From: Planctomycetota bacterium
Lineage (GTDB): Bacteria; Planctomycetota; UBA11346
Assembly: GCA_017302815.1 (NCBI GenBank)
Contig: JAFLCQ010000002.1
Span: 14,969 to 78,968, forward strand
DNA length: 64,000 bases
Direction of reading: 5' to 3'
In this document: in pieces, positions 13,946 to 42,379 of the stretch
Numbering within the stretch: position 1 is the stretch's first letter
How the letters are laid out: the number at the start of each line of letters is the position of its first letter
Made by a program: the position numbers and the translations under genes
Notes under the pieces: model-generated
Databases searched by the model: none
What the model saw: only the letters and a program-made list of their open reading frames with translations
What the model was told of the DNA's origin: nothing

Positions 13946-13978
13946 GGTGGCTGGTCCGATGCTATGCGGGGTTTCGGT

Positions 13979-15397
13979 TCAGCACACCGCGTGGTGCTCA
14001 ATGCCCAGGATGTCCGCCAGCCGGCCGATCGCCGCCGCATGGTGGCCCGTGCCGATGGCGCAGTGGTGGGCCGGGCCGCCGGCGCTCCACGCCTCGACGA
14101 AGTCCTCGGGCGACAGGCTGAAGCGGTAGCGGCTGTTGGTGTTGCCGATCGCCAGGGTCGGGCCATCGACCGCTTCGGCCTGCGCGGTCTGCAGGACGGT
14201 GCGGCCACCGGGGCGCTGCACCACCGACAGCACGGTGACCGGACCGCGCCGCACCGACATGCCGATCGACAGGCCTTTGCCGGGCTTGCCGTGGTAGACC
14301 GGCAGCGGCACCAGACGCACCGGGCCATCGGCCAGCGCTGGATGCCCGGGACCGTCGTGGCCGAGCAGCACCACGCCGTCATCGCAGTCGAGGCCATAGT
14401 ACTCGCTGAACGATCCGCCCTCGGCGATGAGCTGCATGATCAGCATGGCGGTGGCGTTCTTCACCTCGTACTCGCCGGCGCACGGCACGCCGCGTCCGGT
14501 CAGCAGGGTCATGCCCGGGATCAGCGAGGTCACCAGATCGCGGTCGCCGCCGGCATCGCGGCCCTCGTAGTAGTAGGCCATCGCATCGAAGCCCTCGTCG
14601 CGCGCCAGGCGATCGAGCGCCACCGCGGTGGCCGCCGCGCGGTTCAGCTCGGGCACGCTGCACGCGGGATCGACGACGAAGGTGCGGGCGAGCTCGCTGC
14701 GCATGGCGGCGATGTCGGCCGCGGTGACGCTCGCGCGGGCGTCTTCCAGGCGGGCGAATTCGACTCCGCGATAGCGGCAGCCGAGCGCTCCGGCGAGACC
14801 GGTGACATCGGTGTGCACGTCCATCATGCCATCGTAGTAGCCGCCGAGCATGCCGATCGTCGAACGGCGCAGGCGATGCGCGGCGGCCGCCGCCGCGCTC
14901 CACTCACGCAGCCGACGGATCGAGCGCTCGTCGCCGATGTGCCCGGCGACCATGCGCAGCTTGATGCCGGTGCGCGAGAACACGTTGGCCACCTCAGGCG
15001 CGGAGCAGGCCTGGCAGTAGGCCAGCCACTCGCCGGTCATCGCGCCGCGATCACCCAAGGCGTTGATCCCCGGGATGTCCATCTTCGCGCTCGGCTGCAG
15101 CGCGGCGACGACCACCGGCATCGGCAGGTCGGCGACCAGGCGATGGATGACGCCGCTGAGCGCGTAGGTCGACAGCCACAGCACCAGCATGCGGCAGTCC
15201 TCGCGTCGGGCGCGATCAGCGGCGGCGTGTGCGGCGGCGACCGAGTCGACCAGCCCGAGATCGACGATGCGCACATCATCCGAGCCCAGCTTGCCGGCGA
15301 GGTCGGTCTGGCAGTGCACCAGGCGATCGCGCAGGCCGGCGAATTGCGGCCAGTAGGTATCGAGGCCGACTCCGGCGAGGGCTATGGCTGTAGTCAT
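13979..15397 (-). CDS. L-arabinose isomerase / L-fucose isomerase family protein
   Basis: Track ORF 13979..15442. The start is chosen at MTTAIALAGVG, with an AGGAG 6 nt upstream on the coding strand. The C-terminal GGPAHHCAIGTGHH region resembles the AraA GGAHHT block. The length (about 472 aa) and an MLGGYYDGMMD segment are consistent with the AraA-like family. It sits 34 bp upstream of the large GH, so an operon is likely. Confidence 0.65.
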   Translation of the reverse strand: MTTAIALAGVGLDTYWPQFAGLRDRLVHCQTDLAGKLGSDDVRIVDLGLVDSVAAAHAAADRARREDCRMLVLWLSTYALSGVIHRLVADLPMPVVVAALQPSAKMDIPGINALGDRGAMTGEWLAYCQACSAPEVANVFSRTGIKLRMVAGHIGDERSIRRLREWSAAAAAAHRLRRSTIGMLGGYYDGMMDVHTDVTGLAGALGCRYRGVEFARLEDARASVTAADIAAMRSELARTFVVDPACSVPELNRAAATAVALDRLARDEGFDAMAYYYEGRDAGGDRDLVTSLIPGMTLLTGRGVPCAGEYEVKNATAMLIMQLIAEGGSFSEYYGLDCDDGVVLLGHDGPGHPALADGPVRLVPLPVYHGKPGKGLSIGMSVRRGPVTVLSVVQRPGGRTVLQTAQAEAVDGPTLAIGNTNSRYRFSLSPEDFVEAWSAGGPAHHCAIGTGHHAAAIGRLADILGIEHHAVC

Positions 15398-15450
15398 GGC
15401 GATGCTCCTATGAGGTCGGGATCGTCGGCGATCTGCTGGCATCCTGCCGG

Positions 15451-16392
15451 TTGACCGCCACCGATCCGGCCATGATGATGCACGAATCGGCCAACATGCC
15501 TATGCCCCGCGACGACCTGTTCTGGCGCTATCTGCCGGCCGATCCCACCGCCCTCTCCTGGGGCCTAGCGGTCACCGGCGGCGGCTGGTCGCTGATCCGA
15601 CCGGGCATGCCGTATCCTCCGGTGCAGCATCCGGGAGGCCATCATTTCGACTGGAATCGCGGACGCATCCTCAACGAATACCAGCTGATCTACCTGTCGC
15701 GCGGCCACGGCCGCTTCGAGAGCCGCAGCGCCGGCGCGCACCGGATATCGGCTGGCGACCTGATCATCCTGTTGCCTGGGGAGTGGCATCGCTACCTACC
15801 CGATCCGGCCATGGGCTGGGACGAGCACTGGGTCGCCTGCACCGGCGAGCTGCCGCAGCGCTGGCGATCGGCCGGCCTGCTCGATGCGCGGCATCCGATC
15901 CTACACGTCGGCCAGCGGCCGGACCTGCTCGCCGATTACCGCGCCATCGCCGATCTGCTCGCCCGCTGCCCACCGGGTATCGCCGGTCTCGCCGCCGCAC
16001 GCGTCGTCCAGGTGCTGGCCGCCGCCCGCTCGGCCCAGGCTGCAGCCGACGATGATCCACTCGCGGCGGCGGTGCGCACCGCCTGCGTCCGCCTTGCGGC
16101 CAATCCGCGTCGCGCACCCTCGATCACGACGCTGGCCGGGGAACTCGGCGTTCCCGAGCGCAGCCTGCGCCGGGCCTTCTCGGCGCAGACCGGCCTGCCG
16201 CCCAAACAGTGGCTGGTCGAGCTGCGTCTGGGCGAGGCCGAACGCCTGCTGTCCGCCGGATTAAGCGTCATCGACGTGGCAGGCGCCTGCGGATTCCCCA
16301 GCGTGTCGTTTTTCAGCCGACGCTTCCGTGCCCGCACCGGGGCTGCACCGGGAGCCTGGCAAACACATCACCGAGGTACTCGTAGCACGTGA
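15451..16392 (+). CDS. AraC/XylS-family transcriptional regulator (cupin N-terminal domain, C-terminal HTH)
   Basis: Track ORF. The C-terminal HTH SITTLAGELGVPERSLRRAFSAQTGLPPKQWLVELRLGEAERLL...GFPSVSFFSRRFRARTG is classic AraC. It is divergent from the isomerase-GH operon with a roughly 53-bp intergenic region. Confidence 0.75.
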   Translation: MTATDPAMMMHESANMPMPRDDLFWRYLPADPTALSWGLAVTGGGWSLIRPGMPYPPVQHPGGHHFDWNRGRILNEYQLIYLSRGHGRFESRSAGAHRISAGDLIILLPGEWHRYLPDPAMGWDEHWVACTGELPQRWRSAGLLDARHPILHVGQRPDLLADYRAIADLLARCPPGIAGLAAARVVQVLAAARSAQAAADDDPLAAAVRTACVRLAANPRRAPSITTLAGELGVPERSLRRAFSAQTGLPPKQWLVELRLGEAERLLSAGLSVIDVAGACGFPSVSFFSRRFRARTGAAPGAWQTHHRGTRST

Positions 16393-18948: not shown

Positions 18949-19257
18949 AAATATATGCATATGCGCAGATACCCGTAAAAATGGAATACCCCTTCGCCAT
19001 TGTAGTTTACTCCACACTAAAACATAAAATCCACAGAAACGCCGCAGCGCCACCTCGGGTGTCTGTTCAAGACGGCGCGCACCGTTGTTGTACAATTATT
19101 CAATTCCCGGAACACTCGACAACCAAAATACCTACGCTTCAGTAGAACATCTTCGATCCGTCGCAAATATGTAAAATACACAACATTCATTAAACCAATT
19201 TACACAGAATAGATATTCACAACGCTCCAAACAGACAGACCAACACGGCGATTCCAC

Positions 19258-19668
19258 TTAAAGTTTTATATACCACAAATATTGACCAGGTACACCCCCT
19301 TCAATACGATGCGCCACAAAGCAAACCTGCACGACCCAACCAACAACAGCAAGTAAACATAAAGGCAATACAGCAAGCCCAAACATCCACACGAGAAAAT
19401 ACAAAACAAGCGAAACAATGCCCCAAAATACATTAAAATCAAGAGCCGCCGACAAATGACTCGACAGACACACATCTTGTTTACGATCGGATTCGCGAAA
19501 CATAAAAAGCAAGACAGGGATTACATGGCCCAGCAAAGGAAACAGCAAACCAAGCAGAGTGGCGACGTGCATAGCACTCAAGCGGCCCGCCATCACCCTG
19601 TCATCACCAGGCAACATTAGAATCCCCTTGGTGATGGCCTTACCTTTATTTATTCTGCGCATTCGCAA
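19258..19668 (-). CDS. Small integral membrane protein (DUF4870-like), encoded in the AT-rich island
   Basis: Track ORF. Three hydrophobic helices flank a RESDRKQDV...HLSAAL segment. Composition is low-GC compared with the flanks. Start is uncertain. Confidence 0.4.
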   Translation of the reverse strand: MRMRRINKGKAITKGILMLPGDDRVMAGRLSAMHVATLLGLLFPLLGHVIPVLLFMFRESDRKQDVCLSSHLSAALDFNVFWGIVSLVLYFLVWMFGLAVLPLCLLAVVGWVVQVCFVAHRIEGGVPGQYLWYIKL

Positions 19669-19992
19669 TCCTGCAAAAATGAGTTATTTAACCGACGTAC
19701 ATATTCGACACAAAACATCACACACGAAAACGCCGATATCCTCACGCGCACAATGACGCTTTGATAGTTAAACAAGCATCGCATATCTCCAATGCCTATA
19801 GCCACAGTAATATTTTCTGGACTCGAGAACATATGGATGTCATTGGGAGCGCACAACTATGCCACCGCCATTACGCTTTGCCACCCCGATTGTTGATGCA
19901 CAAAACCCCATAACCGTAACCACCAGGAACACCAAATGCAGACTCATGGGACATTCACGGCCACCAGCGATAGGACACAATGAATTTCCAGA

Positions 19993-20475
19993 CTACAGGC
20001 CATGTCCACAAAATACCGACAGCGCACGCACCACCAGTGCATGATCCGCACGATCAGAATACCCGGAGACAGTCACATATCCGAAAATTCCCACATCGTG
20101 CCGTCGGAGCGGAAATCCTCCTCCACATGAAGCGTGATCAGCCTGCGCCGCTCCACGACAAGCCGGATAATCCATACCATATCGAGCACAGCGAAGATAC
20201 ACCAACAGCGAACTTATACCTGTGATTTGCATAGTGTTCTGCTTGCACCGAATCAAAGCATTGCTTTCCATTGACATTCCAGCCATCGCATGACGAAAAA
20301 GACAGCGACCATCACAGGTCACATCGGCAACAATGCCAACACCATCAGCCATTGCCAATGCGATGATATGCAATCCCAGATCCAGGGCGTCGCCATGTGT
20401 AAAATCACGAAACACCAAACGACGTTCCTGATCCTCAACCTCAAGAATTTCCGCATCGAGTTCTGATAAGTTCAA
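19993..20475 (-). CDS. UPF0303 (DUF336/GlcG-like, heme-degrading-fold) family protein, low-GC paralog
   Basis: Track ORF. Family blocks are MNLSELDAEILEVEDQERRLVFRDF, IRCKQNT and CGGGFPLRRHDVGIFGYVTVSGYSDRADHALVVRAL. It aligns along its length with the ORF at 25789..26265, which has QERVLVFPKF, RRKRNT and GGGFPIRVRGAGIVGYVVVSGLPHRDDHALVIGAL. Confidence 0.6.
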   Translation of the reverse strand: MNLSELDAEILEVEDQERRLVFRDFTHGDALDLGLHIIALAMADGVGIVADVTCDGRCLFRHAMAGMSMESNALIRCKQNTMQITGISSLLVYLRCARYGMDYPACRGAAQADHASCGGGFPLRRHDVGIFGYVTVSGYSDRADHALVVRALSVFCGHGL

Positions 20476-21182
20476 TGTGAATCCTGGTTAATATTATCGA
20501 ATGAAAAAATCACAATCTCAGAATTATTCGTTCGACAGCGATTACCACAATTGCATAATGCCATGATTAATTTCTCCAAAACAAGCAAAATTATGCCATG
20601 CGGTCAGCGCACCACAATGCGCCATCGATCACAAAACGGGTGCAATTTGTTCCACTCACGACTTCGACATCATATGCGTCCACCAGAAACCAGCCACCCT
20701 GTCATTTGTTCCAATATCCACCATAAACACTTCTTCCATCAACAACAGGTGTCGGATATCTGAAATATTGCGGCATCATATCCACCAAACACCCGTTCCA
20801 CGATCAACACGACCGGGATCGACCAGAGACACACATATAGCCACGTACTTTTGATCAATTACATTCATACGCGTGGTATTAAAAATGTTTTACACGGCAA
20901 TAACACTTATTTGAATGTTTGAAACACAAGCGCCTACCTTAGACATACTCCATCAGAAGCATTTCAAGACCACAACCATTCATCAACTACGCAAAGCGAT
21001 ATCTGGACGCCAATCTACCGATTTTAGTCCATCCGACATACGCACCAAATACGACATTGGCAATTTTCTACACTACTCATGCCCAAAACACACATGGAAA
21101 CAATTTTCCGTGTAGTTTTTCCACCATACGCTGGAAATCCAATGTAGACCATGTAAGCTTGCTCATCCATTTGGAGTCAAAC

Positions 21183-23174
21183 ATGAGTCAGCATCCATTC
21201 CTGCGTCTTGGATCAGCGTGGTACCCCGAACTCTGGGAGGAGAAGGCCATCGCCGAGGATCTGACCCGCATGACCGAACTGGGATTTAACTCGGTTCGCC
21301 TTGGCGATTTTGCCTGGTCCTGCCTTGAGCCAGAGCCAGGTCGATACGAGACTGATTGGCTGCTGCGGATCCTCGACCGCCTCCATCGCATCGGAATCGG
21401 GGCCATCATGTGCACCCCAACAGCCAGCATCCCAGCGTGGATGCTGGCCACATACCCCGAGCTCGGATTCGTCGATCGCAATGGCCACCGATTTGGAGCT
21501 GGAGGTCGACAAGCCGCCGATTACTGCAACCCCGACTTCCAACGCATGAGCCGCGGCATAACCGAGGCGATGGCAGCCGCCTTTGGCCGTCACCCGGCCG
21601 TGATTGGATGGCAAGTCGACAACGAACTCGGTGGCCATCAAAAGGTATCGGTTTCTCCTGCGGCGCTGGCCGGATGGGCACAGTGGCTGGAACGCAGATA
21701 CAGCTCGATCGCAGAACTCAACCGCGCCTGGGGCACAGACGTCTGGAGCAATCGTTACCACTCATTCGCACAGGTCCCGGGACCAGTGCCTCTACCGACC
21801 TATTGCCACAACCACTCGCTCCACACCGAGTATCGCCGCTACATGAACGATATGGCGATTGCCTTTCAGCGACAGCAAGTTGAGATCATTCGGCGCCACA
21901 GCGATGCTCCCATCACGCATAATTCTGAAGATTCCCTCGATGAATGGGATCTAACCCGTGACCTGGACCTAGCCTCACACGACTGCTATGCCCGTTATAT
22001 GCCTTTGCCGTCCATAATTCACCGGATGGATTGCATACGATCGCTCAAGCCGGGCCGCCGTTTCTGGGTGATGGAAACCGACGCAGAGGGCGCGATCGAT
22101 GGTCAACTGTTCCCCAACGGCTGGACGGCGAATTTCGCCATGCTGGCCTATACCTCTGGCGCCGAAGGTGTGTCCTACTGGCCGTGGCGAAATCTGCGCA
22201 CGGGATCCGAGATTTGCGGGCATGACGGACTGCTCTACGCCTGCGGACGCCCGACCACGGGATTTGAACCCGCCAAGGGCGTATCTGAACTGCGACGGAA
22301 ACTCGACTGTCTCCTGCAGCGATTTTCGCCGGCGCCAGCGCCAGTGGCATGTATCCGTTCTGAGCGCAACGGCCACTTCAATTACATTGAGCGCATTGCC
22401 GGCCTGCGCCCCAACTTTGATTATCGGGCCAGCCTTGAGGCTCATCACCACGATGTGGCAGAACTTGGGGCTTGGCGTGACGTGCTCTACGATCAGGCCG
22501 AACTCACCAGCCAGCGAGTAGTCATGTCGCCATACCTGCCGTACACCTCGCCAGACTTTCTCGCGCGGATGCGCGCGCACCTCGATGCAGGCGGTACCTG
22601 GGTCGTCGGCCCCTACACCGGCTATTTGACTGCACACCACACCAACCATACCACCGCCCTACTCGGCGAGCTGGAATCGATGCTTGGACTCGAGACGCGC
22701 TGCTTTGTTCCGATCACCAGTGTGCCTCTGGTGATGGCGGATGGCCTGGAGACCGAAGCGCTCATGCACGCCATGGCCTTCACCCCACGGCCCGGGGACG
22801 AACCGCTGGCCACCTACGGTGGCGATCGCATCGCCGGTTGGTGCTGGGGCATACGCCGTCATATCGGGCGCGGTTCAGTATACGTCCTGGGAAGCGAGAT
22901 CGGCAAGACAGCGCGACGCACACTCTTCAGATCGATCTTGATCCGAGCGGGCGTGCCGCTCCATCCCATGCCATGCCGCGTGATTCGAGTTCCGCAGCAG
23001 GATGCCCAGGGCCGGAACGCCTGGGCTCTGGTCAACGCAAACCGTACTCCGGTTCGCATCGAACTTCCCGCCTCGGGAACAGATGAACTAACCGGTGCTC
23101 GTGTCGGACGTCAGTTGGATCTCGCGGGCAATTGCAATGCCTTTGTGGTCTTCGACCAGCCCATCCAAGGCTGA
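21183..23174 (+). CDS. GH42-family beta-galactosidase
   Basis: Track ORF 21057..23174. The start is at MSQHPFLRLGSAWYPELW, with GGAG 8 nt upstream. GH42 blocks include NSVRLGDFAWSCLEPEPGRY, ADYCNPDF and GWQVDNELGG. The stop TGA at 23172-23174 lies inside the IS target duplication. Confidence 0.8.
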   Translation: MSQHPFLRLGSAWYPELWEEKAIAEDLTRMTELGFNSVRLGDFAWSCLEPEPGRYETDWLLRILDRLHRIGIGAIMCTPTASIPAWMLATYPELGFVDRNGHRFGAGGRQAADYCNPDFQRMSRGITEAMAAAFGRHPAVIGWQVDNELGGHQKVSVSPAALAGWAQWLERRYSSIAELNRAWGTDVWSNRYHSFAQVPGPVPLPTYCHNHSLHTEYRRYMNDMAIAFQRQQVEIIRRHSDAPITHNSEDSLDEWDLTRDLDLASHDCYARYMPLPSIIHRMDCIRSLKPGRRFWVMETDAEGAIDGQLFPNGWTANFAMLAYTSGAEGVSYWPWRNLRTGSEICGHDGLLYACGRPTTGFEPAKGVSELRRKLDCLLQRFSPAPAPVACIRSERNGHFNYIERIAGLRPNFDYRASLEAHHHDVAELGAWRDVLYDQAELTSQRVVMSPYLPYTSPDFLARMRAHLDAGGTWVVGPYTGYLTAHHTNHTTALLGELESMLGLETRCFVPITSVPLVMADGLETEALMHAMAFTPRPGDEPLATYGGDRIAGWCWGIRRHIGRGSVYVLGSEIGKTARRTLFRSILIRAGVPLHPMPCRVIRVPQQDAQGRNAWALVNANRTPVRIELPASGTDELTGARVGRQLDLAGNCNAFVVFDQPIQG

Positions 23175-23176
23175 TC
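23169..23176. repeat. Left copy of the 8-bp target-site duplication GGCTGATC of the IS66 element
   Basis: Identical 8-mers sit immediately outside both IS termini. This copy contains the GH42 stop codon (ggcTGAtc). Confidence 0.85.
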
Positions 23177-23279
23177 GTATCCACTTATCCAAGCCGTGCG
23201 CCTCGCCTGACCACCTGATGGGAGTCATCCCGACTGCCGAAAATGTGGGCTGCCGAAAATTGGACAGTGGCGGTCGAGA

Positions 23280-24872
23280 TCAGGCGGTGCGCTTGGCCTG
23301 GTGACGCTGGGCGTAGGCGGCCGGCGTCAGGTCGAGCGGATCGGTGTCTCCGGCAACGAGGGCAGGCATGATGTCGGTGAGGTAGGTGATGGGTTCGATG
23401 CGCTGGAGCCGGCAGGATTGAAAGATGGAGAACAGGGTGGCCGCCCAGGCTCCGCCGTCTTCACTGGCGACGAAGAGCCAGCCCTTCCGTCCGACAGCGA
23501 TGGGACGCTGTTGGCGTTCGGCGGCGTTGTTGTCGAGCGGTAGTCGCCCGTCGTTGACGAAGCGGGTGAGGGCTGCCCAGTGGTTGCGCAGGTACTGGGC
23601 ACCCTTTGCCACCGGCGACTCGCTGGGTTCGGTGGCGAGAATGCGACCGGTCCTCGCGTGGATGGCCGCCAGCAGCACAGGGGCCTCCTGCTGGCGTAGC
23701 GCGGTGCGCACACGGACTGGATCACGATGCAGCGCCTGGGCGACGATGGCGGCCACGCGATCAATGCGATAGAGCGCCTGGATCAGCTCCAGCTGCGGTC
23801 GGGCGGCGGGGGCATCATCGAGCCGTTCGTGGAAGGGCCGCCGGGCATGCGCCCAGCAGCCGACCTCGGTGGCTGTGCCTCCGCCCGGGGTGAAGAGATG
23901 GTCGTGTCCACCGTAGGCGTCGGCGACGATGTAGCCGCGATAATCACGCAGGAGATCGCCGGGCCAGTGCCCGGCACGCGAGGCGGTGAAGTCGAAGAAG
24001 ACCTGATCGGCGGCGGTATAGCACCAGATGCGGGCGATGCGGCAGGATCCTCGTCGGTTGGCGTGATCGAGCTGCCGGATCGGGGTGTCGTCCAGATGCA
24101 GGATGGGCTGATCCAGGATCTGCTGCCGGATCGCACCGGCCACGGGGTCCAGCCGCCGGCTCAGATGGCCCATCCACGAGCAGGCCGTCGCCGTGCTGAG
24201 ATCGACGCCCTGCCGCAGCCAGTCCTGGCGCTGCCGGTGCAGCGGCAGGCCGAGGGCGTACTTCTGGTGGGCGATGTGCAGCACCAGGCGGTCGCCGCCC
24301 AGGCCGCGCGGGACGATGGCGGGCGGGATGGGAGCGGTCAGCACCGGCTCGCGGGTGTCGCGGCGGCCATAGCGGGTGCGGATGGTGACGTGGCGGACGA
24401 AGCGGCCCTGCACCCAATCCAGGCGGACCGAGCGCTCGACGCCTACCGGCACCAGTGGCGTGCCGTCATGGTCGACGCAGGCCGACGCCGGCAGCTCGAC
24501 GCGCTCCTCCACCGTCTCCAGGTGCTCGGGCAGGGTCAGCCGGCCGCGACCACGCGGCGAGCGCCGCCGCGGGACATGCGCTGGCGAGGGCGAGGACCCA
24601 TGGTCATCCGGCAGCGCGGCTCCGACCGCCTGGGCATGCACCCGGAGCCGGTCGATGGCCGCCACGAGTTCGGGAATGGGCTGCTGCCCCGGTGCTGGGA
24701 TGAGCGCTTCCGACTGCGGCGCGACCACCCGACGGACCATGCGTCGCAACTGCCCGTCCAGCGCGACCACCTTGGCGCGTAGCGCCTGGTTCTCCTGGAC
24801 GAGCGCCCGGTTGGTCGCCTCCAACGCGGCGATCCGTTCCATCAGCATCGCCAGGGTCGGCGCGTCGCTCAC
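23280..24872 (-). CDS. IS66-family transposase (orf3, TnpC)
   Basis: The 530-aa ORF has IS66 TnpC hallmarks: HLDDTPIRQLD, CWAHARRPFHE, LDNNAAERQQRPIAVGRKGWLF, and an N-terminal coiled-coil or leucine-zipper-like segment (IAALEATNRALVQENQALRAKVVALDGQL). Confidence 0.9.
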   Translation of the reverse strand: MSDAPTLAMLMERIAALEATNRALVQENQALRAKVVALDGQLRRMVRRVVAPQSEALIPAPGQQPIPELVAAIDRLRVHAQAVGAALPDDHGSSPSPAHVPRRRSPRGRGRLTLPEHLETVEERVELPASACVDHDGTPLVPVGVERSVRLDWVQGRFVRHVTIRTRYGRRDTREPVLTAPIPPAIVPRGLGGDRLVLHIAHQKYALGLPLHRQRQDWLRQGVDLSTATACSWMGHLSRRLDPVAGAIRQQILDQPILHLDDTPIRQLDHANRRGSCRIARIWCYTAADQVFFDFTASRAGHWPGDLLRDYRGYIVADAYGGHDHLFTPGGGTATEVGCWAHARRPFHERLDDAPAARPQLELIQALYRIDRVAAIVAQALHRDPVRVRTALRQQEAPVLLAAIHARTGRILATEPSESPVAKGAQYLRNHWAALTRFVNDGRLPLDNNAAERQQRPIAVGRKGWLFVASEDGGAWAATLFSIFQSCRLQRIEPITYLTDIMPALVAGDTDPLDLTPAAYAQRHQAKRTA

Positions 24873-24878
24873 GCCCTC

Positions 24879-25235
24879 CTATGACGCAGATCCTGTTCCG
24901 CCCTTACCAGGCAGTGCGCGGTGGCGCGGCAGCACCTCCTCCAGCAGCGCGACCACCTGGGCGGTGGTCAGTGGCCGTGCTCCGGTCGCGCTGGCGGTGG
25001 CCGGCAGCTGGAACCGGGATGCCTCCAGCCGCTTGGCGCACAGCCAGAATCCGGTGGGCTCCCAGACCAGCACCTTCGCGCGGGTGCGATCCTTGCCGAC
25101 GAACACGAAGACATCGCCCTGGAACGGGTCCATGCCCAGATCCACCCGCACCAGATCTGCCAGCGAGTCGTAGGCCTTCCGCATGTCGACCGGCTGCTGG
25201 CAGAGGAAGATCCGACGACGACCGAAGCTCAGCAT
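24879..25235 (-). CDS. IS66 orf2 (TnpB) protein
   Basis: The C-terminal 118 aa of track ORF 24879..25688 read MLSFGRRRIFLCQQPVDMRKAYDSLADLV...DPFQGDVFVFVGKDRTRAKVLVWEPTGFWLCAKRLEASRF. This matches the conserved IS66 Orf2 pattern PVDMRK..DGL...DPF.G..FVF.N.R....K.L.WD..GF.L..KRLE.G.F. Confidence 0.8.
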   Translation of the reverse strand: MLSFGRRRIFLCQQPVDMRKAYDSLADLVRVDLGMDPFQGDVFVFVGKDRTRAKVLVWEPTGFWLCAKRLEASRFQLPATASATGARPLTTAQVVALLEEVLPRHRALPGKGGTGSAS

Positions 25236-25666
25236 GGCTGCCCCAGGCAGGCGATCACTGACCGCAGGAGCTCGGGCGAGAAGCCGGGGCCGACCGACAC
25301 GCGCACGCCGCTGGGCAGATGGACCTCGATGGGGGATGGCGGCGGCGGTGGGGCAGCCGGGGGCGGTGATGACCGTGCCTGGTCCTCGGCTGGCGGCTGG
25401 CCGACGATGATCGCGTGGTGCTCGTCGATGGTCCCAATGGGGATCAGGTGCCCGGGACGCGTGGGCGGCGCAGACGCGCTGGCGGCAGCTGCCAACTGCC
25501 GGGCTCGTGCGCACCAGTACGTCACCATCTTGAACGAGACGCCCTTCTGCCGGGCGAACTCCGAGACGCTGAGCCGGCTCGACAGATACTCGTTCGCCAT
25601 CGCCACGCCGTCGGTGACGTTGCGGTAGCGATGGACGCCATGTCGGTGCTTCGAGTCGTCGCTCAC
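25229..25666 (-). CDS. IS66 orf1 (TnpA) protein
   Basis: The track ORF overlaps the orf2 start by 7 nt, as is typical of IS66. An HTH-like segment reads LSVSEFARQKGVSFKMVTYWCARARQL. Which Met is the true start is uncertain. Confidence 0.6.
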   Translation of the reverse strand: MSDDSKHRHGVHRYRNVTDGVAMANEYLSSRLSVSEFARQKGVSFKMVTYWCARARQLAAAASASAPPTRPGHLIPIGTIDEHHAIIVGQPPAEDQARSSPPPAAPPPPPSPIEVHLPSGVRVSVGPGFSPELLRSVIACLGQPC

Positions 25667-25737
25667 GGCCTGCCTCCGGGGCCGGCACTGTGATGGCTAT
25701 CGCGTCACAACGCTACACGGCTTGGATGAGCGGATAC

Positions 25738-25745
25738 GGCTGATC
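25738..25745. repeat. Right copy of the 8-bp target-site duplication GGCTGATC
   Basis: It lies directly after the right terminal inverted repeat that ends at 25737. Confidence 0.85.
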
Positions 25746-25788
25746 CCTACGCCGGGCCGTAGCACAAAGCCCGCATCGCGATTGTACA

Positions 25789-26265
25789 TCATGTCGGGAT
25801 GAACGCCCGCAGGGCGCCGATCACCAAGGCATGATCGTCCCGATGCGGCAGGCCAGATACCACCACATAGCCGACGATGCCAGCACCCCTCACGCGGATG
25901 GGGAAGCCGCCACCACCGGGAGCGTGCTCTGCGGGATCGACTCCATAGCTGGCAGCCATGTTGCTGCCAGCGCGCGCAAGGCGGAGGAAAACCTGTAGTG
26001 AACTAGTGCCTGTCAATCGCATGGTGTTACGCTTGCGGCGAATCCACGAGTCATGCTCGGATGTCGTTCCTGCCATAGCATGGTGAAATAGGCATTGCCC
26101 ACCGCATTCTATGTCGATGGCCACTCCGACTCCGCCAGCGGTTGCCAGGGCGATAATCTGCAGGCCCAGTTCGAGCGCGTCGCGCGGGGCGAATTTTGGA
26201 AACACCAGTACTCGCTCCTGCAACTCGACCTCGGCAATATCTCGGTCCAATTGGTCTAGATCCAT
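25789..26265 (-). CDS. UPF0303 (DUF336/GlcG-like) family protein, native-GC paralog
   Basis: Track ORF 25789..26325. The start is chosen at MDLDQLDRDIAEVELQERVLVF. Family blocks are RRKRNT and GGGFPIRVRGAGIVGYVVVSGLPHRDDHALVIGAL. It lies 100 bp downstream of the GH95 gene on the same strand. Its stop is 43 bp from the IS target site. Confidence 0.65.
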   Translation of the reverse strand: MDLDQLDRDIAEVELQERVLVFPKFAPRDALELGLQIIALATAGGVGVAIDIECGGQCLFHHAMAGTTSEHDSWIRRKRNTMRLTGTSSLQVFLRLARAGSNMAASYGVDPAEHAPGGGGFPIRVRGAGIVGYVVVSGLPHRDDHALVIGALRAFIPT

Positions 26266-26368
26266 GATCCCTCCAGCGGAGCCGCCATGAAATCTTGAGT
26301 CCGAGCACAGACAAGCACTCGCCACTACCCGCCATTGTGCTCCGGTCTAAATTTGCAACGGAGATTCA

Positions 26369-28462
26369 TCATGACGTCGTGGCACGGCAGCGATAGGTTT
26401 CGCCTGCCCGGGTCTGAAAACGGGTTCTGCCGGCATCCAGACGCACCGCGACAACATCGCCATCGGCGGTTTCGATCTTCCATTCGCCGGCCAAGGCACA
26501 AACCCCACCGCGTTCACTGCGGATGCGCACATCCTTCATTCGACCGCCTGAACAGGCTCCCGAAACCAGAAAAGCGCCGTCGGTCCGTAAACCTTCGAAG
26601 GCAGCAGGGCGTTGCCGGTCCCATACCGGGAAGAGACGGATCACTCCATGCTGGGATTGCAGCAGCAGGTCGTCGACTGCACACATCGCACCGCAGGTCT
26701 CGATCCCGCCATGCCGCGGATTGGTAACCACCATGCCGTTTGCGATGGTGAACTCGGCTATGGTCTCGCGCAGCAGGTCGACAATCCCGGGATAGCCGAC
26801 TCGGACTGCGGCCGGCAGGACTAGACTAAATGCATTGGTCTGCCGCCAAGCGTCTGCGGCGCGCAGAGTGTTCCGGGCAAGTTCGACCTGTCGTGGATCG
26901 GAGCCTATGCCGATTAACAGGCCGGGAAAGACGCAGTGCGATGGTACATGATCTGGGGCAAAGACGTGGTCGATGCCGGCATGCAAACCGAACGCACGAG
27001 TGCCATCCGACAGATCGACCTCAGGAAGCGGTGCGAGACGTTCGAGGATCGCTTGCCAACGCGACACTCGCTCACCATCAATGCCCAACTCGGTGGCGAA
27101 GGCGATGAGGGCGGTAAACAAAACACGCAGATGCACGAGATCCGGCAAGGGATCGTCGCGGAGCAGCCTATGGCGATCTCGTGGCAGCAGCGACTCATGG
27201 GTCAGCGTCCCTACTTCCGGCCAGCCTGCCGGAATCTCGTGCGCAGTCGCGTTGCGGATATGGAGAATGCCCGCCTCATCCGGTTGAAGCCAGGCCTCCC
27301 AATAGTCAGCCACACCACGGAGGAACGGATATGCGATCGCAGCAAGAAATCCACGGTCTCCAGTGGCGCGGCAGTGTTTAATGAAGGGAATGGCACAATG
27401 CAGGGCATTGCCGCGCTGGTTCCAAGCGCCACCACCTTCTGGAAGGATGCCGTCGGGGCCGAGCGCCACCGGAGCGAAGAGTCCCGGCAGACTGGCCGCC
27501 GCGGCGTAGCGGCGGAAGATCGGAGTGGCAGCGCTGAGCGCATGCAGATGTGCGAGAGCCAGTTCAGGATGATCTGCGGTCCACAGACCTTGGATCGGGG
27601 CCTGGAAGTTGTAATTGAGATGGTAGTCACCATGCCAGGCCGGTTCATCAGTGGTCACCCACGGTCCGTAAAGGCCCGGTGCCCATGCATCCGGCCGGGC
27701 AGCTGATCCGAGGTGGGCGAGAGACGCGCGTCGGAACCGCGCCAGGACCGGCTCGTCCGGAAGCTCAACCCGGCCGCGTAGCCAGAATCCGCGCCAATGC
27801 TCGGCATGTGCGGCGATCCGGGTGGTGAGATCGCTCCCATCCAAGCCGGTCATCAGCGACTGCACCAGCACACGCGGATCGGAACCGTCGCGATGACTGC
27901 GCACCGCGATCGCGAGTCGCCGGCAGGCAGATCCAGACAATACCAACCCGGGACCGGTCAGGCCGGGGGCGCACACACCCATCGCAACCACCCCATCGCC
28001 ATCGCCGGGGTGCTCAAGCCTACGCTCGGCCCAAGGCCAACCACCAATTCGGCCGCAGGTGGTTGGGAAATCAGCAGACCGCGACCAGCCAGGCAGCAGT
28101 CGGATGTCGACTTCGATTGCCGCGTCGCCACGGTTCTCCAGGTTAAGCAGCACCAGACCGTCATGTATCCGCACATCCACCGCGAGAGCGCCAAGAGAGG
28201 CGGTCGCCACTCCGGCTTCGAGGTCGTGGGTCAGGGCAAAGCCGCCTGGACAACGCAGGCGCAACTGGCCGACCTGCAACGGTGAGCATCGGCTGCGACT
28301 CCAGGCGTCGTTCGAGCCGAGGCGGATCATGATCTCGCCATCGCCACCGCCCACGACCGCGCCCAGGCGGCCGTCACCCAGGAGGGCGCCATCGGGCGTG
28401 AAACGAGTCTCCATCACAGTCGGCGGGGTGGACCAGGTCAATACACGGGTATCCATCGTCAT
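26369..28462 (-). CDS. GH95-like alpha-L-fucosidase (six-hairpin glycosidase)
   Basis: Track ORF. The N-terminal LLGDGRLGAVVGGGDGEIMIRLGSNDAWS matches the GH95 PIGNGRLGAMVFGG...LNE.TLWSG block. The internal WHGDYHLNYNFQ resembles the GH95 DYH.N.N.Q catalytic region. Confidence 0.65.
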   Translation of the reverse strand: MTMDTRVLTWSTPPTVMETRFTPDGALLGDGRLGAVVGGGDGEIMIRLGSNDAWSRSRCSPLQVGQLRLRCPGGFALTHDLEAGVATASLGALAVDVRIHDGLVLLNLENRGDAAIEVDIRLLPGWSRSADFPTTCGRIGGWPWAERRLEHPGDGDGVVAMGVCAPGLTGPGLVLSGSACRRLAIAVRSHRDGSDPRVLVQSLMTGLDGSDLTTRIAAHAEHWRGFWLRGRVELPDEPVLARFRRASLAHLGSAARPDAWAPGLYGPWVTTDEPAWHGDYHLNYNFQAPIQGLWTADHPELALAHLHALSAATPIFRRYAAAASLPGLFAPVALGPDGILPEGGGAWNQRGNALHCAIPFIKHCRATGDRGFLAAIAYPFLRGVADYWEAWLQPDEAGILHIRNATAHEIPAGWPEVGTLTHESLLPRDRHRLLRDDPLPDLVHLRVLFTALIAFATELGIDGERVSRWQAILERLAPLPEVDLSDGTRAFGLHAGIDHVFAPDHVPSHCVFPGLLIGIGSDPRQVELARNTLRAADAWRQTNAFSLVLPAAVRVGYPGIVDLLRETIAEFTIANGMVVTNPRHGGIETCGAMCAVDDLLLQSQHGVIRLFPVWDRQRPAAFEGLRTDGAFLVSGACSGGRMKDVRIRSERGGVCALAGEWKIETADGDVVAVRLDAGRTRFQTRAGETYRCRATTS

Positions 28463-28477
28463 TTCTCCAACTGGGAT

Positions 28478-31400
28478 TCACGGTGCCGGCAGGATGCGGA
28501 TGCCGGCGATGATGCCTTCAAACCAGTAGTCCTTACCCGATGCTCTGCCGATCCGGATGCGACCATCCCATTGCGGTGGCGCACAGGCTTTCGCCGCCTG
28601 TATCCGCCCATCGATCAGCAGCCGCGCCTGGTTGCCATCATTCTCATAGCGGATGGTCACCATGCGGTTTACGACTAGCGGGTCGGTCGCAATCAGATTT
28701 CTCGTCCCCTCTGGGCCAGCCCACTGCTCGACCACCACGCGTAGATTGCGATCGACCATGATGCGGAGTCCCCTCGCCTGATAGGTGCCCGCCTCGATCA
28801 GACCGCCGTAGGCTCCCGCCGGGGGCCCTAGGGCAGCAGCATCGATTTCGATCGCCACCGGCTTGCCCTCGGCGAGCGGAGTCGCCGGCAAGGTGCCATC
28901 GAGCTGCCGACCGGCGCCGAATCGGCGTCCGTTCCGGCCATCAAGCTCGACTATCTCGGCCTCACCACCCAATGCCTGGTCTCCAACCAACGCCGGAACA
29001 CCACGCGCATCGCCAACGCCAAGATCCCAGGCAGCGGCGGGCTTGGCGCCAACTACCTCACCAAGGGTGATAGATACCAGGACCAGCTGGGTCTGGGCCA
29101 GGCCACCGATCACATCGATGCTGGCGATTTCCCGCTCGGGATGTGGGTTGTCCCAGGGCATGCTGTAGAGACCGATGGGGGCATGTCGATCGTTACGGCC
29201 AGTCCACGCCACTGCCGCACCCGGCAGGGGTTCCGGATGCCACCAATCAGCAATTTCCTGACCCTGCCGCACATCCGCGGAGGCACGGGATCCATCGCTA
29301 TACACGATATCGTAGCGGGCGACCAAACGACCACGTCCGCCAGAAGACGACCATGCCCCGGTATGGAGAAACCAGATGCGGTCGGCCTTCGCTCCCACCG
29401 GGATGCCGCGCACCGCATCCAGGGCAGTGGGATCATGTCCTTCGGCGCGGAAGGTCAGCACCGACCGGCCATGGTTGGCGGCAGGGTCGACCAGACCGAA
29501 GTCGACGCCGGCAAGGTTGGCGCTGGCGGGGAAGGCCTGCCCGGCCACAGCCATGCCGCCGACTATACCGGTGTGATTTACCAGGAAGTAGCGGAGGTCA
29601 TTGTCGCCCTGATCGGTCCAGCCGCCGACGCCATCTCCCATGCGGTCATCGACAAAGCCACGATTGGCGAAGCGGGCGAGATCGACGTGCCGGAAGCGAT
29701 ATGCGCGCGCGGACCGGATCTCACCCCCGGCCCCGATATTGTGCGCCAGACAGCCGGCGATGCGAGCAATACGCTCGGGTTCGGCAGCGGCGGCCCGGTC
29801 CCACGCCAGTTGATCGATGAGGATCCGTCCACGGCCCAGCGGCACCGCCACCAGGAGTGGCGGATCGGTGATCGCTACGGCGTGGTCGGCGACCGGCGCT
29901 TCGATGCCCGGCCCTCCGAGCGACGCGGTAGAAGCGCCTTCGCGGGCCCAATACAGATCGGCGGTGCCAATGCCGTCCGCCAACGGGTCGCGTATGCGCA
30001 CCGCGGCCCCGACCCGTCCGGCTGGCAGCGGAACCAAACGCGGCTGCCACGGCAGCAGCGCAGTGGCAGCAGACAGGGTTCCGGAGTCCAGCCCACGCAA
30101 CCATAGGGTACCGCCCGCTTCGACCTCGGTCCGCAGCCGCTGCAGCATCTCGCGATCAGGGATGCCGGCGCCGAGATCGAGCATGGCCGGCCCGCCTCCA
30201 GCTGCCTCATCACTGATGCGCACGCCGGCGGCAATCAGGACGGCACGGGCCGGAGCGGCGACGCCGATCAGGCGCAGTGCCGGCGGCGGATCGGTTGGCG
30301 TCGCGGCGACACCGCGCCGCACCGCCCGGGCGAGGATCTCGGCTGCGACAGGTTCGACGGCGCTGCGCTCAGCCAGGAGGTATTGGCACCAGGTAATGCC
30401 GCCACGGCCATGGCGTTGTTCAGCCAGGGGCGACCAGTGCATGCCGTAGCGTCCCCCGCACACCGCGGTGCCGATCGCGGCGGCGGAGGCCGGGCGCACC
30501 AGCGTTTCGGTTGCCACCAAATGATCGGGACGCCAGAAGCGAAGTTGCCTGTCGTCAAAACCCGCCAGCAGCGGATCCCGAGATTGGCTCCAGCTAAATG
30601 ATGCGGCATGGCGTGGGTCGATCTCGGGCTGACCCGCGGCGAGTAGACCGATCCGCGTCTGGTGCAACACCAGGACCTGCCCACCGCTTTCGGCGAAGCG
30701 GGCAGCCGCGGCAAGGTCGGCCTGCTCGGCGGCACCCTCTCCGATAACCAGTAGACGTTTCCCGACCAGGCTCCGGTCATCGCAGGCGCCCGGTGCCAGC
30801 CTGAGACCCATCGCCTCCAGGGCCTTGGCGGTCACCCCCTCCTTGTCGACCAGGGCGATGCCGATGGCATCCACGTCCGACAGGGTCGGGCGGGGCAGGA
30901 CCCACATGTCTTCCTCGTGGCGGGCTAGTTCAATAGCTTGCCTTCCGCGCATCCAGCGCAGCCGCACAATCAGCTTGACCGCAGCCGGTGAGGCAAGGCG
31001 GGGCACCGCCATGTCGATGTCAAGCTGTCGCGATTCCCCTGGTGCCCAGGGTACAGGAATGCGTTCCGTCGACCAGACGGCGCGCGCGCCGATGAATAGT
31101 CCAGCCTGGAGGTGCAGGTCGTTCCACGCCTGGTGATGGTCGTTTGCGACGACAAAGCGACGAGTGCAGGTCTCCCCGGCAAAAGCATTGGGGAAGTGGT
31201 CAAGCGGCGCCACCAGCAGTTGCGGCATGGTCTGGAAGCCCTGGCCTGTCCACGGGTTGAGACAGGCGACGCCGGCCGCGCGATAGTGATCGCTACTCAA
31301 CTTGACCATCTCGATCCATGGGCTGGGCGCGGTGGTCGGGGCGTTGCGTCCGCCGAAATCGGTCCAACGCCAAGCCGACTCGTCGTAGGCCGCATCACCC

Positions 31401-33103
31401 GAGAATGGCGCATAGCGATCGGATACGCCGGGTTCTGGGCAGTAGAACTCACCGAGCATCAGAGGGCGGTCCCACATGAAATCGGCACGCCAGGCATGGT
31501 TGGTGCCGTTACGGCGCAGCCAGTCGAGGTCATTCGGCACCACCCAGCCGCTATTGTCGTAGCGCTTGCCAACCGTGCCCGCGTCCCCCTCCGGGTAGTG
31601 GATGCTGATTGCATCCAGCCTGCCGTCCCAGGTCACTTCGCCATCGCCCTGAAGGAGGCGGGTCGGATCCGCTCCGCGGATCGTCCGGACGACCTGCTCT
31701 GCCACCGCCATGCGTTCAGGAGTGGTGCTGTTCCACATCGTCTCGTTAGTCACGCTGTACATGATGACCGATGGATGGTTGCGCCAGCGCCGCACCAGAC
31801 GGCGCATGGTCTCGAGGGTGGCTGGAGTCCAGGCGTTGGCCTGGGCGATCGGGAAGCGCTTGTCGTCGTTCTGGTACCAACCCCAAAACTCGGGAATCAC
31901 CAGCATGCCCATGCGATCACACTGATCGATGACGGCGGGGTTGTTCTGACCAAGATGCAGGCGGATGCAGTTGGAATTACGCAACTCGTCGCGCAGCCAG
32001 GGGATGACCTCATCGCGCGGTTCGGTCGGGCTGCGTAGCCATGAATTGCGCAGCAGGACTTGGCGACGTCCATTCAGCTGAAAATCCGTCCCGGATGCCG
32101 TGAAACTGCGGTAACCGAACCCAGTGGATTGCCGGTCGATTGAGCGACCATCGGCATCCAGTCGGACCTCGGCGCGATGCAGAACCGGCGCGGCGGGGCT
32201 CCACCACCCGCCTTCGGTCCAGTCCGCAGCCAGGTTCGCGGTGGCCGTGCCGCCAGGCGGTATCTCAACTTCTCCACCAGTGATGGACAGGCGGACCATG
32301 CCTTCCGGATCTCGAACCGTCACAACCGGGATGACTCGACGCGGACTCGCAGCGGCACTGGCGATGGACACCTCGACTTCGATGCGGTGTTGCGACGTCA
32401 ACGGACGAACGAATATGTCGTCGATACGCACCTCGGGTACGAGTTCGATCCACACCCGATCAGAAATGCCAGGCATGGTACCGCCGATGGGGGCTGTGAA
32501 TGAGCGTTGCCCCTGGTCCCATAGCGCCCATCGAGCCGTTGCCGCGATGGCGATCGTATGGTCGCCAGGCACCATACGTTCGGTGATGTCGTATGTATGC
32601 GGAACAAGACCAAGGTTCGAGGATCCGAATGCGGCCCCATCGATGCGCAGTTCGTGACGCCACGCCACCCCATCGAGATGGAGTAGCGCGCGCATGCCGG
32701 CTGGCAACGTACTGGAGATACTGAACCCGCGCCGAAACCACGCGGCCGCCTTGGCCGGCTCAGGGCAGCGCCCGTGGCTATCGACGAGAGCGTCAAATGC
32801 AGGTATGTAGGGTCCAAGTCCCTCGTTGGTGATGAGCACGGTCTCCCGACTGGGTACCTGATGCGGCGCCCATCCATCTGTCGGCGGCGGCCACGACAGA
32901 TCGGTGACAGACCGCGCCTCCCAGGTACCACCGAGATCGAGGGTCGCCCTCAGGCCATCACTATTGAATGGCCCGGGAATCACGACCGATACGACCGGTG
33001 GTGCCGAAGGAGGCGCCGACGACGGCGGGGTCGCCGACGGAGAGGCTTCAGCGCAACCTTGAAGGACGAGGACGATCAGCAAACCGAGCATGTGTAGGCG
33101 CAT
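28478..33103 (-). CDS. Large GH2-family glycoside hydrolase (1541 aa) with a possible lipoprotein signal and a C-terminal concanavalin/LamG-like extension
   Basis: Track ORF. The N-terminus MRLHMLGLLIVLVLQGC looks like a signal peptide with a possible lipobox. A GH2 TIM-barrel block reads NCIRLHLGQNNPAVIDQCDRMGMLVIPEF...WSVTNE. The C-terminal DYWFEGIIAGIRI is lectin-like. There is a 16-bp gap to the GH95 gene. Confidence 0.7.
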   Translation of the reverse strand: MRLHMLGLLIVLVLQGCAEASPSATPPSSAPPSAPPVVSVVIPGPFNSDGLRATLDLGGTWEARSVTDLSWPPPTDGWAPHQVPSRETVLITNEGLGPYIPAFDALVDSHGRCPEPAKAAAWFRRGFSISSTLPAGMRALLHLDGVAWRHELRIDGAAFGSSNLGLVPHTYDITERMVPGDHTIAIAATARWALWDQGQRSFTAPIGGTMPGISDRVWIELVPEVRIDDIFVRPLTSQHRIEVEVSIASAAASPRRVIPVVTVRDPEGMVRLSITGGEVEIPPGGTATANLAADWTEGGWWSPAAPVLHRAEVRLDADGRSIDRQSTGFGYRSFTASGTDFQLNGRRQVLLRNSWLRSPTEPRDEVIPWLRDELRNSNCIRLHLGQNNPAVIDQCDRMGMLVIPEFWGWYQNDDKRFPIAQANAWTPATLETMRRLVRRWRNHPSVIMYSVTNETMWNSTTPERMAVAEQVVRTIRGADPTRLLQGDGEVTWDGRLDAISIHYPEGDAGTVGKRYDNSGWVVPNDLDWLRRNGTNHAWRADFMWDRPLMLGEFYCPEPGVSDRYAPFSGDAAYDESAWRWTDFGGRNAPTTAPSPWIEMVKLSSDHYRAAGVACLNPWTGQGFQTMPQLLVAPLDHFPNAFAGETCTRRFVVANDHHQAWNDLHLQAGLFIGARAVWSTERIPVPWAPGESRQLDIDMAVPRLASPAAVKLIVRLRWMRGRQAIELARHEEDMWVLPRPTLSDVDAIGIALVDKEGVTAKALEAMGLRLAPGACDDRSLVGKRLLVIGEGAAEQADLAAAARFAESGGQVLVLHQTRIGLLAAGQPEIDPRHAASFSWSQSRDPLLAGFDDRQLRFWRPDHLVATETLVRPASAAAIGTAVCGGRYGMHWSPLAEQRHGRGGITWCQYLLAERSAVEPVAAEILARAVRRGVAATPTDPPPALRLIGVAAPARAVLIAAGVRISDEAAGGGPAMLDLGAGIPDREMLQRLRTEVEAGGTLWLRGLDSGTLSAATALLPWQPRLVPLPAGRVGAAVRIRDPLADGIGTADLYWAREGASTASLGGPGIEAPVADHAVAITDPPLLVAVPLGRGRILIDQLAWDRAAAAEPERIARIAGCLAHNIGAGGEIRSARAYRFRHVDLARFANRGFVDDRMGDGVGGWTDQGDNDLRYFLVNHTGIVGGMAVAGQAFPASANLAGVDFGLVDPAANHGRSVLTFRAEGHDPTALDAVRGIPVGAKADRIWFLHTGAWSSSGGRGRLVARYDIVYSDGSRASADVRQGQEIADWWHPEPLPGAAVAWTGRNDRHAPIGLYSMPWDNPHPEREIASIDVIGGLAQTQLVLVSITLGEVVGAKPAAAWDLGVGDARGVPALVGDQALGGEAEIVELDGRNGRRFGAGRQLDGTLPATPLAEGKPVAIEIDAAALGPPAGAYGGLIEAGTYQARGLRIMVDRNLRVVVEQWAGPEGTRNLIATDPLVVNRMVTIRYENDGNQARLLIDGRIQAAKACAPPQWDGRIRIGRASGKDYWFEGIIAGIRILPAP

Positions 33104-33135
33104 GCAGATCCCTTGGGGTCATCGTTTGGCACGTT

Positions 33136-33687
33136 TCAACGGTCGAGGATCTCTGCCAGGTGGGCCTTTGCCCAATCCTGCCGTTGTGCGACGGCCAATG
33201 GATCCGTGAGGACCTTGCCGAGGCGTGCCCGCAACCGCTCGGCATCGGCCGTCTGATCCGGATGGGCAATGGCATCACGTACCGCCTCTGCCGGTGCGAT
33301 GTCGACTCCAAGACAAGTCAGAGCCGCGACAAGGTCTTCTGGGCCCGGGCTGGTCGTCTCGGTACCGGGTTGGTGAAACCGCATCCAGTCGGCCATGCCG
33401 ACATCGGCGATATCCCGCGAGATGCGCACGACCACCCAGTAGGAGCGGGCTTCCGTCCCTAGACGCCGCCAATCCCCAGGATTGCCGTCAGCGGTATACC
33501 AACGACGGGCGATGGCGCGCATCAGCGCCGCATCCAGTTGCACGCCATCGAGGCTCTTGATGTCCTCTAACGCCGGCTCTTCGTCGGAGACATCCACCGC
33601 AGGCCGTGCCAACCAGTTGATTGCAACCAGAGCCAGCCCAGCAATGAGTGCACCAACCAGCAGCTTCTGGTTCACGGAGGACTCCAC
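33136..33687 (-). CDS. Hypothetical protein with N-terminal transmembrane anchor
   Basis: Track ORF. The N-terminus is LLVGALIAGLALVAINWL. It overlaps the stop of the upstream DUF1559 gene by 16 nt, so an operon is likely. Confidence 0.45.
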   Translation of the reverse strand: MESSVNQKLLVGALIAGLALVAINWLARPAVDVSDEEPALEDIKSLDGVQLDAALMRAIARRWYTADGNPGDWRRLGTEARSYWVVVRISRDIADVGMADWMRFHQPGTETTSPGPEDLVAALTCLGVDIAPAEAVRDAIAHPDQTADAERLRARLGKVLTDPLAVAQRQDWAKAHLAEILDR

Positions 33688-34364: not shown

Positions 34365-34552
34365 CCGGATCACACCTTCGTGATGCATGGTAACCTCCCC
34401 TTGCTAGGTGCTAACGAGCATATGGACGCAGGATAAAATTGATATGGATTTTTCTATATCATACACAGAATCAATAGCAGCAAAGAACTGCATCGCGAGA
34501 CGAGTCGGCCCAGACCCCCGACCTCCGGCGCGATACAGCCGAGGGAGCCGCC

Positions 34553-35167: not shown

Positions 35168-35170
35168 CCC

Positions 35171-36223: not shown

Positions 36224-36240
36224 ACCGGATCGGGAACGCC

Positions 36241-36984: not shown

Positions 36985-36995
36985 ACACACGCGGG

Positions 36996-39077: not shown

Positions 39078-39170
39078 GCCAGAACGCACGGTCAGCCGTC
39101 GCCCGGGCGATCCTTCTCAGATACAGATAGCTATCCACAGGACTATGCCGCTTATCGTAACGCCTCTCAT

Positions 39171-41372: not shown

Positions 41373-41515
41373 CGAAGGGCAGACTACCGGGCACGTAGCG
41401 GTGGAACCAGGCGATCGAGATCTGGAAGCGCTCGCTGGCCGCCAACCTGAACCAGTCCGAGGTCTATCATGCACTCTAAGAATGCCTACCGCAGGGCCAA
41501 GGAGTCGCGTCCGCC

Positions 41516-42370: not shown

Positions 42371-42379
42371 AGCCATGCG

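Follow-up and report, generated by a model that had tools for sequence, protein, structure and literature searches.

Background

Three-gene insertion sequences (ISs) of the IS66/IS679 type are about 2.5 kb long, are bounded by terminal inverted repeats (IRs) of about 22 bp and generate an 8-bp target duplication. Their open reading frames (ORFs) follow the order tnpA-tnpB-tnpC, with overlapping tnpA and tnpB, a TnpB of the PF05717 family and TnpC as the DDE transposase (PF03050). Across the IS66 family the IRs measure approximately 20-30 bp and usually carry a GTAA tip. Han et al. are said to have found in 2001 that transposition of IS679 requires all three ORFs. The element described here, a 2561-bp IS with this gene order and overlap, these protein families, 22-bp IRs with a GTAT tip and an 8-bp duplication, lies between a GH42 beta-galactosidase gene and a convergent HbpS-like/UPF0303 gene. 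It was analysed within a 64,000-nucleotide stretch, referred to as the window, of contig JAFLCQ010000002.1 from a Planctomycetota metagenome-assembled genome (MAG).

The ISBst12 group, e.g. ISDge4, comprises elements with an IS66-type DDE transposase, 8-bp direct repeats and imperfect IRs starting with GT(A/G)A, and the transposition mechanism of IS66 was called insufficiently characterised in the same recent paper (PMC12898284). The window element resembles this group in its transposase type, its 8-bp direct repeats and its imperfect IRs, but ISBst12 elements have a single ORF and the three ORFs found here place it outside the group. Its TnpC is no more than 32 % identical to those of plasmid-borne IS66 relatives, the best of which is ISAba25-like (about 31 %), and a megablast of the IS against plasmids gave no match. 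Unlike most of the more distant IS66 homologs, this TnpC has no Pfam matches to zf-IS66 (PF13005), LZ_Tnp_IS66 (PF13007) or DDE_Tnp_IS66_C (PF13817).

Results

A complete IS with a perfect 8-bp target duplication

The locus is best explained, with a probability of about 0.93, by transposition of a canonical three-gene IS66-family IS into a 45-bp spacer between the GH42 gene and the converging HbpS-like/UPF0303 gene. The features of the element are as follows.

23177-25737, minus strand: complete IS66-family insertion sequence, 2561 bp, bounds set by the IRs and the ends of homology
23177-23198, plus strand: right inverted repeat (IRR), tnpC-distal end, GTATCCACTTATCCAAGCCGTG, located by a repeat finder and kept in relatives
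25716-25737, minus strand: left inverted repeat (IRL), upstream of tnpA, GTATCCGCTCATCCAAGCCGTG, followed by a conserved TAGC, located by the repeat finder
23169-23176: left copy of the target-site duplication, GGCTGATC, holding the last GH42 codon GGC and the stop TGA (23172-23174)
25738-25745: right copy of the target-site duplication, GGCTGATC
25229-25666, minus strand: tnpA, 145 aa, accessory protein, GTG start after GGAGG (NF047593)
24879-25235, minus strand: tnpB, 118 aa, IS66 Orf2-type accessory protein (PF05717, NF033819)
23280-24872, minus strand: tnpC, 530 aa, DDE transposase (PF03050, NF033517)
23234-23260: tandem motif, two copies of the 11-nt CTGCCGAAAAT with a period of 16, in the 103-nt non-coding stretch from the tnpC stop to the IR

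The 22-bp terminal repeats match at 20 of 22 positions by direct reading as well as by the repeat finder. When up to three mismatches were allowed, the IR pattern occurred in the 64-kb window only at these two places, with 0 expected in shuffled sequence. The two copies of GGCTGATC are identical in all eight positions and each abuts an IR tip. The duplication is exactly 8 bp long because the preceding base differs between the copies (A versus C), as do the bases on the outside. By itself the octamer is common, with 7 copies in the window where 4.6 would be expected; what gives it weight is its placement directly at both IR tips, for which the chance is about 4^-8. Homology to the full-length relatives L013 and L044-L046 (89-90 % nt identity) begins and ends precisely at the element bounds. 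The perfect duplication described in the first-pass annotation of this sequence was thus recovered, whereas the span given there, 23169-25745, proved to be the IS together with both duplication copies, the IS proper being 23177-25737.

The events at the site can be described in the steps known for the family. The DDE transposase TnpC, aided by TnpA and TnpB, would bind the 22-bp terminal repeats and join the element to a target whose strands are cut 8 bp apart, and repair of the two gaps would then leave the direct repeat GGCTGATC. The staggered cut covered GGC-TGA-TC and the left copy thus regenerates the last codon and the stop of GH42; the earlier observation that the GH42 TGA lies within the duplication, with its ORF preserved, was correct.

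One end of a sister element carries GTAAGCG (IRL) and the other GTATCC. The tandem motif beyond tnpC is conserved among elements of 77-90 % nt identity and is recognisable near 71 % (L013; L014-L020; L026/L027), and it may serve as a subterminal site of protein binding. The corresponding stretch of L025 instead resembles an inverted repeat.

The three transposition genes

All three proteins passed the cut-offs of their family models, in agreement with the initial assignment to IS66 with three intact ORFs. The product of tnpA scored 35.8 bits with the NCBIfam model NF047593 (IS66 TnpA; cut-off 28) and 51.5 bits with NF047595, under the cut-off of 74, and gave no match in the Pfam search. TnpB matched PF05717 (E=1.2e-30; 105.8 bits versus a cut-off of 26.6) and NF033819 (101.4 bits versus 50), and TnpC matched PF03050 (E=1.8e-71; 241 bits versus 23) and NF033517 (314 bits versus 180). 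The tnpA and tnpB genes overlap by 7 nt (25229-25235), and tnpC starts 6 nt past the tnpB stop with an AGGAGGG motif ahead of it, as read directly. In an alignment with 112 homologs TnpC keeps every column that is at least 97 % conserved, including D261, D318 and E452. In comparison with the 89 %-identical element on L013 the ratio of nonsynonymous to synonymous substitution rates (dN/dS) was 0.21 for tnpA, 0.11 for tnpB and 0.07 for tnpC. These low values, a sign of purifying selection, indicate that all three have evolved as functional genes. The element may be called potentially active, a weaker reading than the probable continuing activity that the first-pass annotation drew from its intactness.

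The exact TnpC, TnpB and TnpA sequences were found at one locus only, in two assemblies that read through the element, and no second IR pair lies within the 64-kb window. By these exact-protein look-ups and the IR search of the window, the element is apparently single-copy.

The element is largely annotated in GenBank already. Records MBN8523832 to MBN8523836 of the Planctomycetota MAG cover the GH42, tnpC, tnpB, tnpA and HbpS-like genes under the labels beta-galactosidase, IS66 family transposase (MBN8523833), IS66 TnpB (MBN8523834) and heme-degrading domain-containing protein; tnpA is entered as a 'hypothetical protein' (J0M02_00720, MBN8523835.1) despite passing NF047593. What the present work defines for this MAG element is its exact ends, its duplication and its third gene, tnpA, and it has little import beyond annotation, the target-site profile given below being the one point of broader use.

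An uninterrupted site in a related lineage

The element is flanked by two intact genes.

21183-23174, plus strand: GH42 beta-galactosidase, 663 aa (PF02449, PF08532)
25789-26265, minus strand: HbpS-like/UPF0303 (PRK02487) heme-degrading-domain protein, 158 aa, convergent on GH42 (PF03928, NF002696)

The HbpS-like protein scored 164.8 bits with NF002696 (cut-off 146). GH42 homologs that carry names, at 40-45 % identity, come from Verrucomicrobiota. The stop of the HbpS-like gene (25789-25791) lies 43 nt (25746-25788) from the right duplication copy, which is the distance noted earlier for the UPF0303 stop. The convergent layout reported with it also stands, but when the IS and one octamer are removed the ancestral stop-to-stop gap between GH42 and the HbpS-like gene is 45 nt and not 43. 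Neither neighbouring gene was changed in length or damaged by the IS.

The counterpart of this site was reached through an 89 %-identical GH42 protein (P0121) in a search of a large protein collection. On contig L022 (Logan DRR438482) GH42 is followed by a convergent HbpS-like gene with no IS between them. GH42 of L022 is 89 % identical to that of the window in aa and 84 % in nt sequence, and the HbpS-like gene is 80 % identical in nt. Both protein lengths and the position of the GH42 C-terminus are equal, and 45 nt separate the two stops, the same spacing as in the reconstructed window site. The reconstructed empty junction of the window site reads ...CCCATCCAAGGCTGATCCCTACGCCGGGCC..., and L022 has GGCTGACT at the octamer position. 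L022 thus carries an orthologous uninterrupted site, which is most simply read as a gain of the IS by the lineage of the window after its split from L022.

The empty site predicted in the first-pass annotation was also sought as an exact string. The 24-mer ATCCAAGGCTGATCCCTACGCCGG matched neither the GTDB species representatives nor the JGI metagenomes (0 hits in each); only the diverged ortholog of the site, in L022, was found. The best GH42 relative among GTDB species representatives is only 38 % identical, with no close genome there. Exact look-ups of GH42, the HbpS-like protein and TnpC returned only the same locus (NCBI MAG and Logan SRR13786855), with no conspecific IS-free strain recorded.

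Target choice

Apart from the window site, perfect 8-bp duplications were identified in five further related insertions.

L026: CGATGAAC
L027, 2573-2580 and 5234-5241: GATTCAGT
L043/L032: GGATGACC
L044/L049: CGTGGATC
L047/L045-46: CGTAGATC

For a target profile, 37 distinct flank octamers of related elements were pooled and oriented by the IS. Position 1 was G or C in 32 of the 37 and position 8 was C in 20; position 3 was T or A in 27 and G in one (p=2e-5), position 5 was G in 19 (p=0.003), and A occupied position 6 in 23 (p=4e-12). The profile, approximately SNTYRANS, is roughly palindromic because the T at position 3 mirrors the A at position 6. The positions are clearly non-random, and the counts indicate that insertion in this clade follows a weak and roughly palindromic target preference, the core of which is often TGA or TCA. 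The window octamer, in the reading GGCTGATC, scores in the top 0.6 % of random octamers with this profile. Weak palindromic target preferences are a general property of DNA transposons (PMC2577343), and for IS66 no description of such a preference was found in the searchable literature. A structural (hairpin) target was considered and dropped, as three reconstructed empty sites share no common fold.

Two of the six verified duplications hold the stop codon of a Pfam-supported gene in a convergent gap. One is the GH42 site; the other is GATTCAGT of the L027 element (TnpC 65 % identical), which includes the stop of a YgjP-like gene. Moreover, among the 36 octamers that remain without the window site, 11 contain TGA or TCA where 4.65 would be expected (p=0.004), a 2.4-fold enrichment. 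Both observations could be taken to mean that the element actively seeks out stop codons or the 3' ends of genes, in a dedicated strategy of benign landing, which is considered improbable. Other verified duplications containing TGA, e.g. that of L043, do not provide the stop of any ORF of at least 80 codons, the roughly palindromic profile has the look of an ordinary dimeric transposase preference, selection also filters the insertions that survive, and the sample is small.

It is concluded that the GH42 stop was hit through a combination of sequence bias, the presence of such motifs at gene ends and selection rather than through dedicated homing. The weak S-N-T-Y-R-A-N-S preference of the clade, with its frequent TGA or TCA core, would act together with the position of A/T-containing motifs at gene ends in a GC-rich genome, and gene-breaking insertions would be purged. 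A more specific proposal, that a real SNTYRANS consensus biases insertion towards TGA stops in GC-rich genomes and that the duplication, by regenerating the stop, makes this a low-cost landing bias, is tentative and rather unlikely. If confirmed on larger, unselected data, the profile would constitute a target consensus for IS66 elements and would account for the frequent position of surviving copies on stop codons.

In L027 the YgjP-like gene adjoins a type I restriction subunit gene, and L026 is a second copy in the same assembly.

Transcription around the insertion

The insertion added 2.56 kb between convergent genes that were once 45 nt apart, and both IRs, read directly, contain an outward-facing TTGGAT that matches a -35 hexamer at 4 of 6 positions and lies 10 nt from the tip. 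The IS might accordingly alter the expression of its neighbours, either by insulating or terminating convergent transcription or by donating an outward promoter; as judged by the scans below, this is very improbable. No sigma-70-like promoter was found by scanning 22900-26100, which speaks against the outward-reading promoters suggested in the first-pass annotation, and direct reading of the two flanks revealed no suitably spaced -10-like hexamer. The only terminator-like site in the same interval lies inside tnpC, and 0.7 such sites would be expected by chance.

The same annotation suggested that the IS had removed or replaced a shared bidirectional terminator, for which one hairpin was named.

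25747-25762: hairpin CTACG-CCGGGC-CGTAG, 5-bp stem, -4.0 kcal/mol, no T-tract, retained part of the ancestral spacer

Its sequence is as first reported, with the coordinates moved from 25749-25764. Since it is positioned 1 nt to the right of the duplication, the hairpin was kept and not removed. It was not called by the terminator scan, which called nothing in the convergent gap, and it is not conserved in L022, where the gap has another sequence and another fold. A bidirectional terminator would appear as a GC-rich stem-loop with A- and T-tracts, conserved in orthologous gaps, and the gap holds no such structure. As a T-tract terminator is absent from the ancestral spacer, both here and in L022, there was nothing obvious for the IS to remove, and the suggestion was abandoned.

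The tnpABC genes are co-oriented with the minus-strand genes upstream of them, which encode a GH2-like protein (28478-33103), a GH95 protein (26369-28462) and the HbpS-like protein. The tnpA start lies only 123 nt from the HbpS-like stop, and there is no terminator in this interval. Transcripts reading through from the upstream genes could therefore express tnpABC and continue antisense into GH42. On the whole, the element is ordinary and intact, and its intergenic position is harmless.

Age of the insertion and reliability of the assembly

Presence and absence in two lineages alone cannot show the ancestral state, and the IS might instead have been ancestral at the site and precisely excised in the lineage of L022. 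Such a loss would have had to restore exactly 45 nt and a single octamer copy, and the perfect duplication and intact ORFs fit a gain better than a long residence, so that excision is extremely improbable. The recency ascribed to the insertion in the first-pass annotation is bounded only as later than the split from the lineage whose GH42 gene is 84 % identical in nt; a fairly young insertion would agree with the perfect duplication and the intact genes.

Equally improbable is a metagenome mis-assembly that put the IS into a chimeric contig: although the source is a MAG and related copies often lie on IS-length contigs with unmatched flanks (L013, L014-L020, L025, L039), a perfect 8-bp duplication at both junctions is unexpected from a chimera, the junctions are identical in the NCBI (86.6-kb contig) and Logan SRR13786855 (53.7-kb contig) assemblies, and the flanks are syntenic with L022.

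Several points nevertheless weigh against the transposition reading as a whole. The source is a short-read MAG and the Logan assembly was probably built from the same reads, which makes it a not fully independent check. Neither the GTDB representatives nor the JGI metagenomes yielded a conspecific genome carrying the predicted empty site in its exact form, and the timing of the insertion is for that reason only loosely bounded. One copy alone was found, and the element is no more than potentially active. The target preference comes from a small sample (n=37), was recognised post hoc and mixes sub-lineages of 71-91 % identity. Finally, the GC content at third codon positions (GC3) of the IS genes is 82-85 % and that of the neighbours 64-66 %, yet the former lies inside the 57-88 % range of other window genes. 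A foreign origin based on base composition was withdrawn, as host genes in the window reach a GC3 of 88 %.

Relatives of the element

Together, the TnpC homologs with 60-95 % identity make up an environmental clade, which likewise has no Pfam matches to the zf-IS66, LZ or C-terminal domains. Members of this clade (clusters P0001/P0156, P0002, P0004 and P0019; TnpC 65-95 % identical in aa) have the same architecture as the window element. They also share with it the IR core TCCGCTYATCCAAGCC, the TAGC after IRL, the 8-bp duplications, the GGAG Shine-Dalgarno motif ahead of tnpA and, beyond tnpC, a tandem motif resembling ATTTTCGGCAG. The window element differs from these relatives in that the nearest full-length copies are only 89-91 % identical in nt. 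Furthermore, they are multi-copy in their samples, with many flanks and IS-length contigs, whereas the window element is apparently single-copy.

By the ISfinder convention (less than 95 % nt identity) the element would qualify for its own name and, from these comparisons, is regarded as an unnamed IS66-family member. A search of viral contigs with the IR pattern gave four matches, all without the GTAT tip, which were taken as chance and discarded.

The wider window

The Rfam and tRNA scans of the 64-kb window found nothing. Three ORFs, 10043-13945 (1300 aa), 13601-15454 (617 aa) and 34454-35983 (509 aa), had no Pfam match at E<=1e-5; around them lie glycoside hydrolases, fucosidases, a heparinase-like protein and AraC regulators. 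The plus-strand ORF 13601-15454 overlaps a 487-aa minus-strand ORF, and one of the two may therefore be spurious.

An AT-rich, G-depleted island (18950-21180; GC 41-52 %, GC skew about -0.25, AT skew about +0.2-0.3) interrupts the window, whose GC content is 64 %. The sequence upstream of GH42 in L022 shows no homology to this island. Within it lie a MamF/MmsF-like ORF (about 19258-19668, minus strand), approximately 700 nt of apparently non-coding DNA upstream of GH42, and a second HbpS-like paralog (19993-20475, minus strand). The paralog is only 56 % identical in aa to the one adjoining the IS, and a recent duplication of two HbpS-like genes flanking GH42 was rejected on this ground.

In L022 the HbpS-like gene leads directly to a GDSL-lipase/GntR/fucosidase block corresponding to window positions 34440-39073 (88.6 % nt identity) and then to 50418-51791. 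The window therefore contains approximately 8 kb (26317-34440) and 11 kb (39073-50418) of extra glycoside-hydrolase DNA. The IR search of the window placed no IS ends at the boundaries of these blocks. The first encodes the GH95 protein and a 1541-aa GH2-like protein, and the second a heparinase-like protein and a 1441-aa GH2-like protein.

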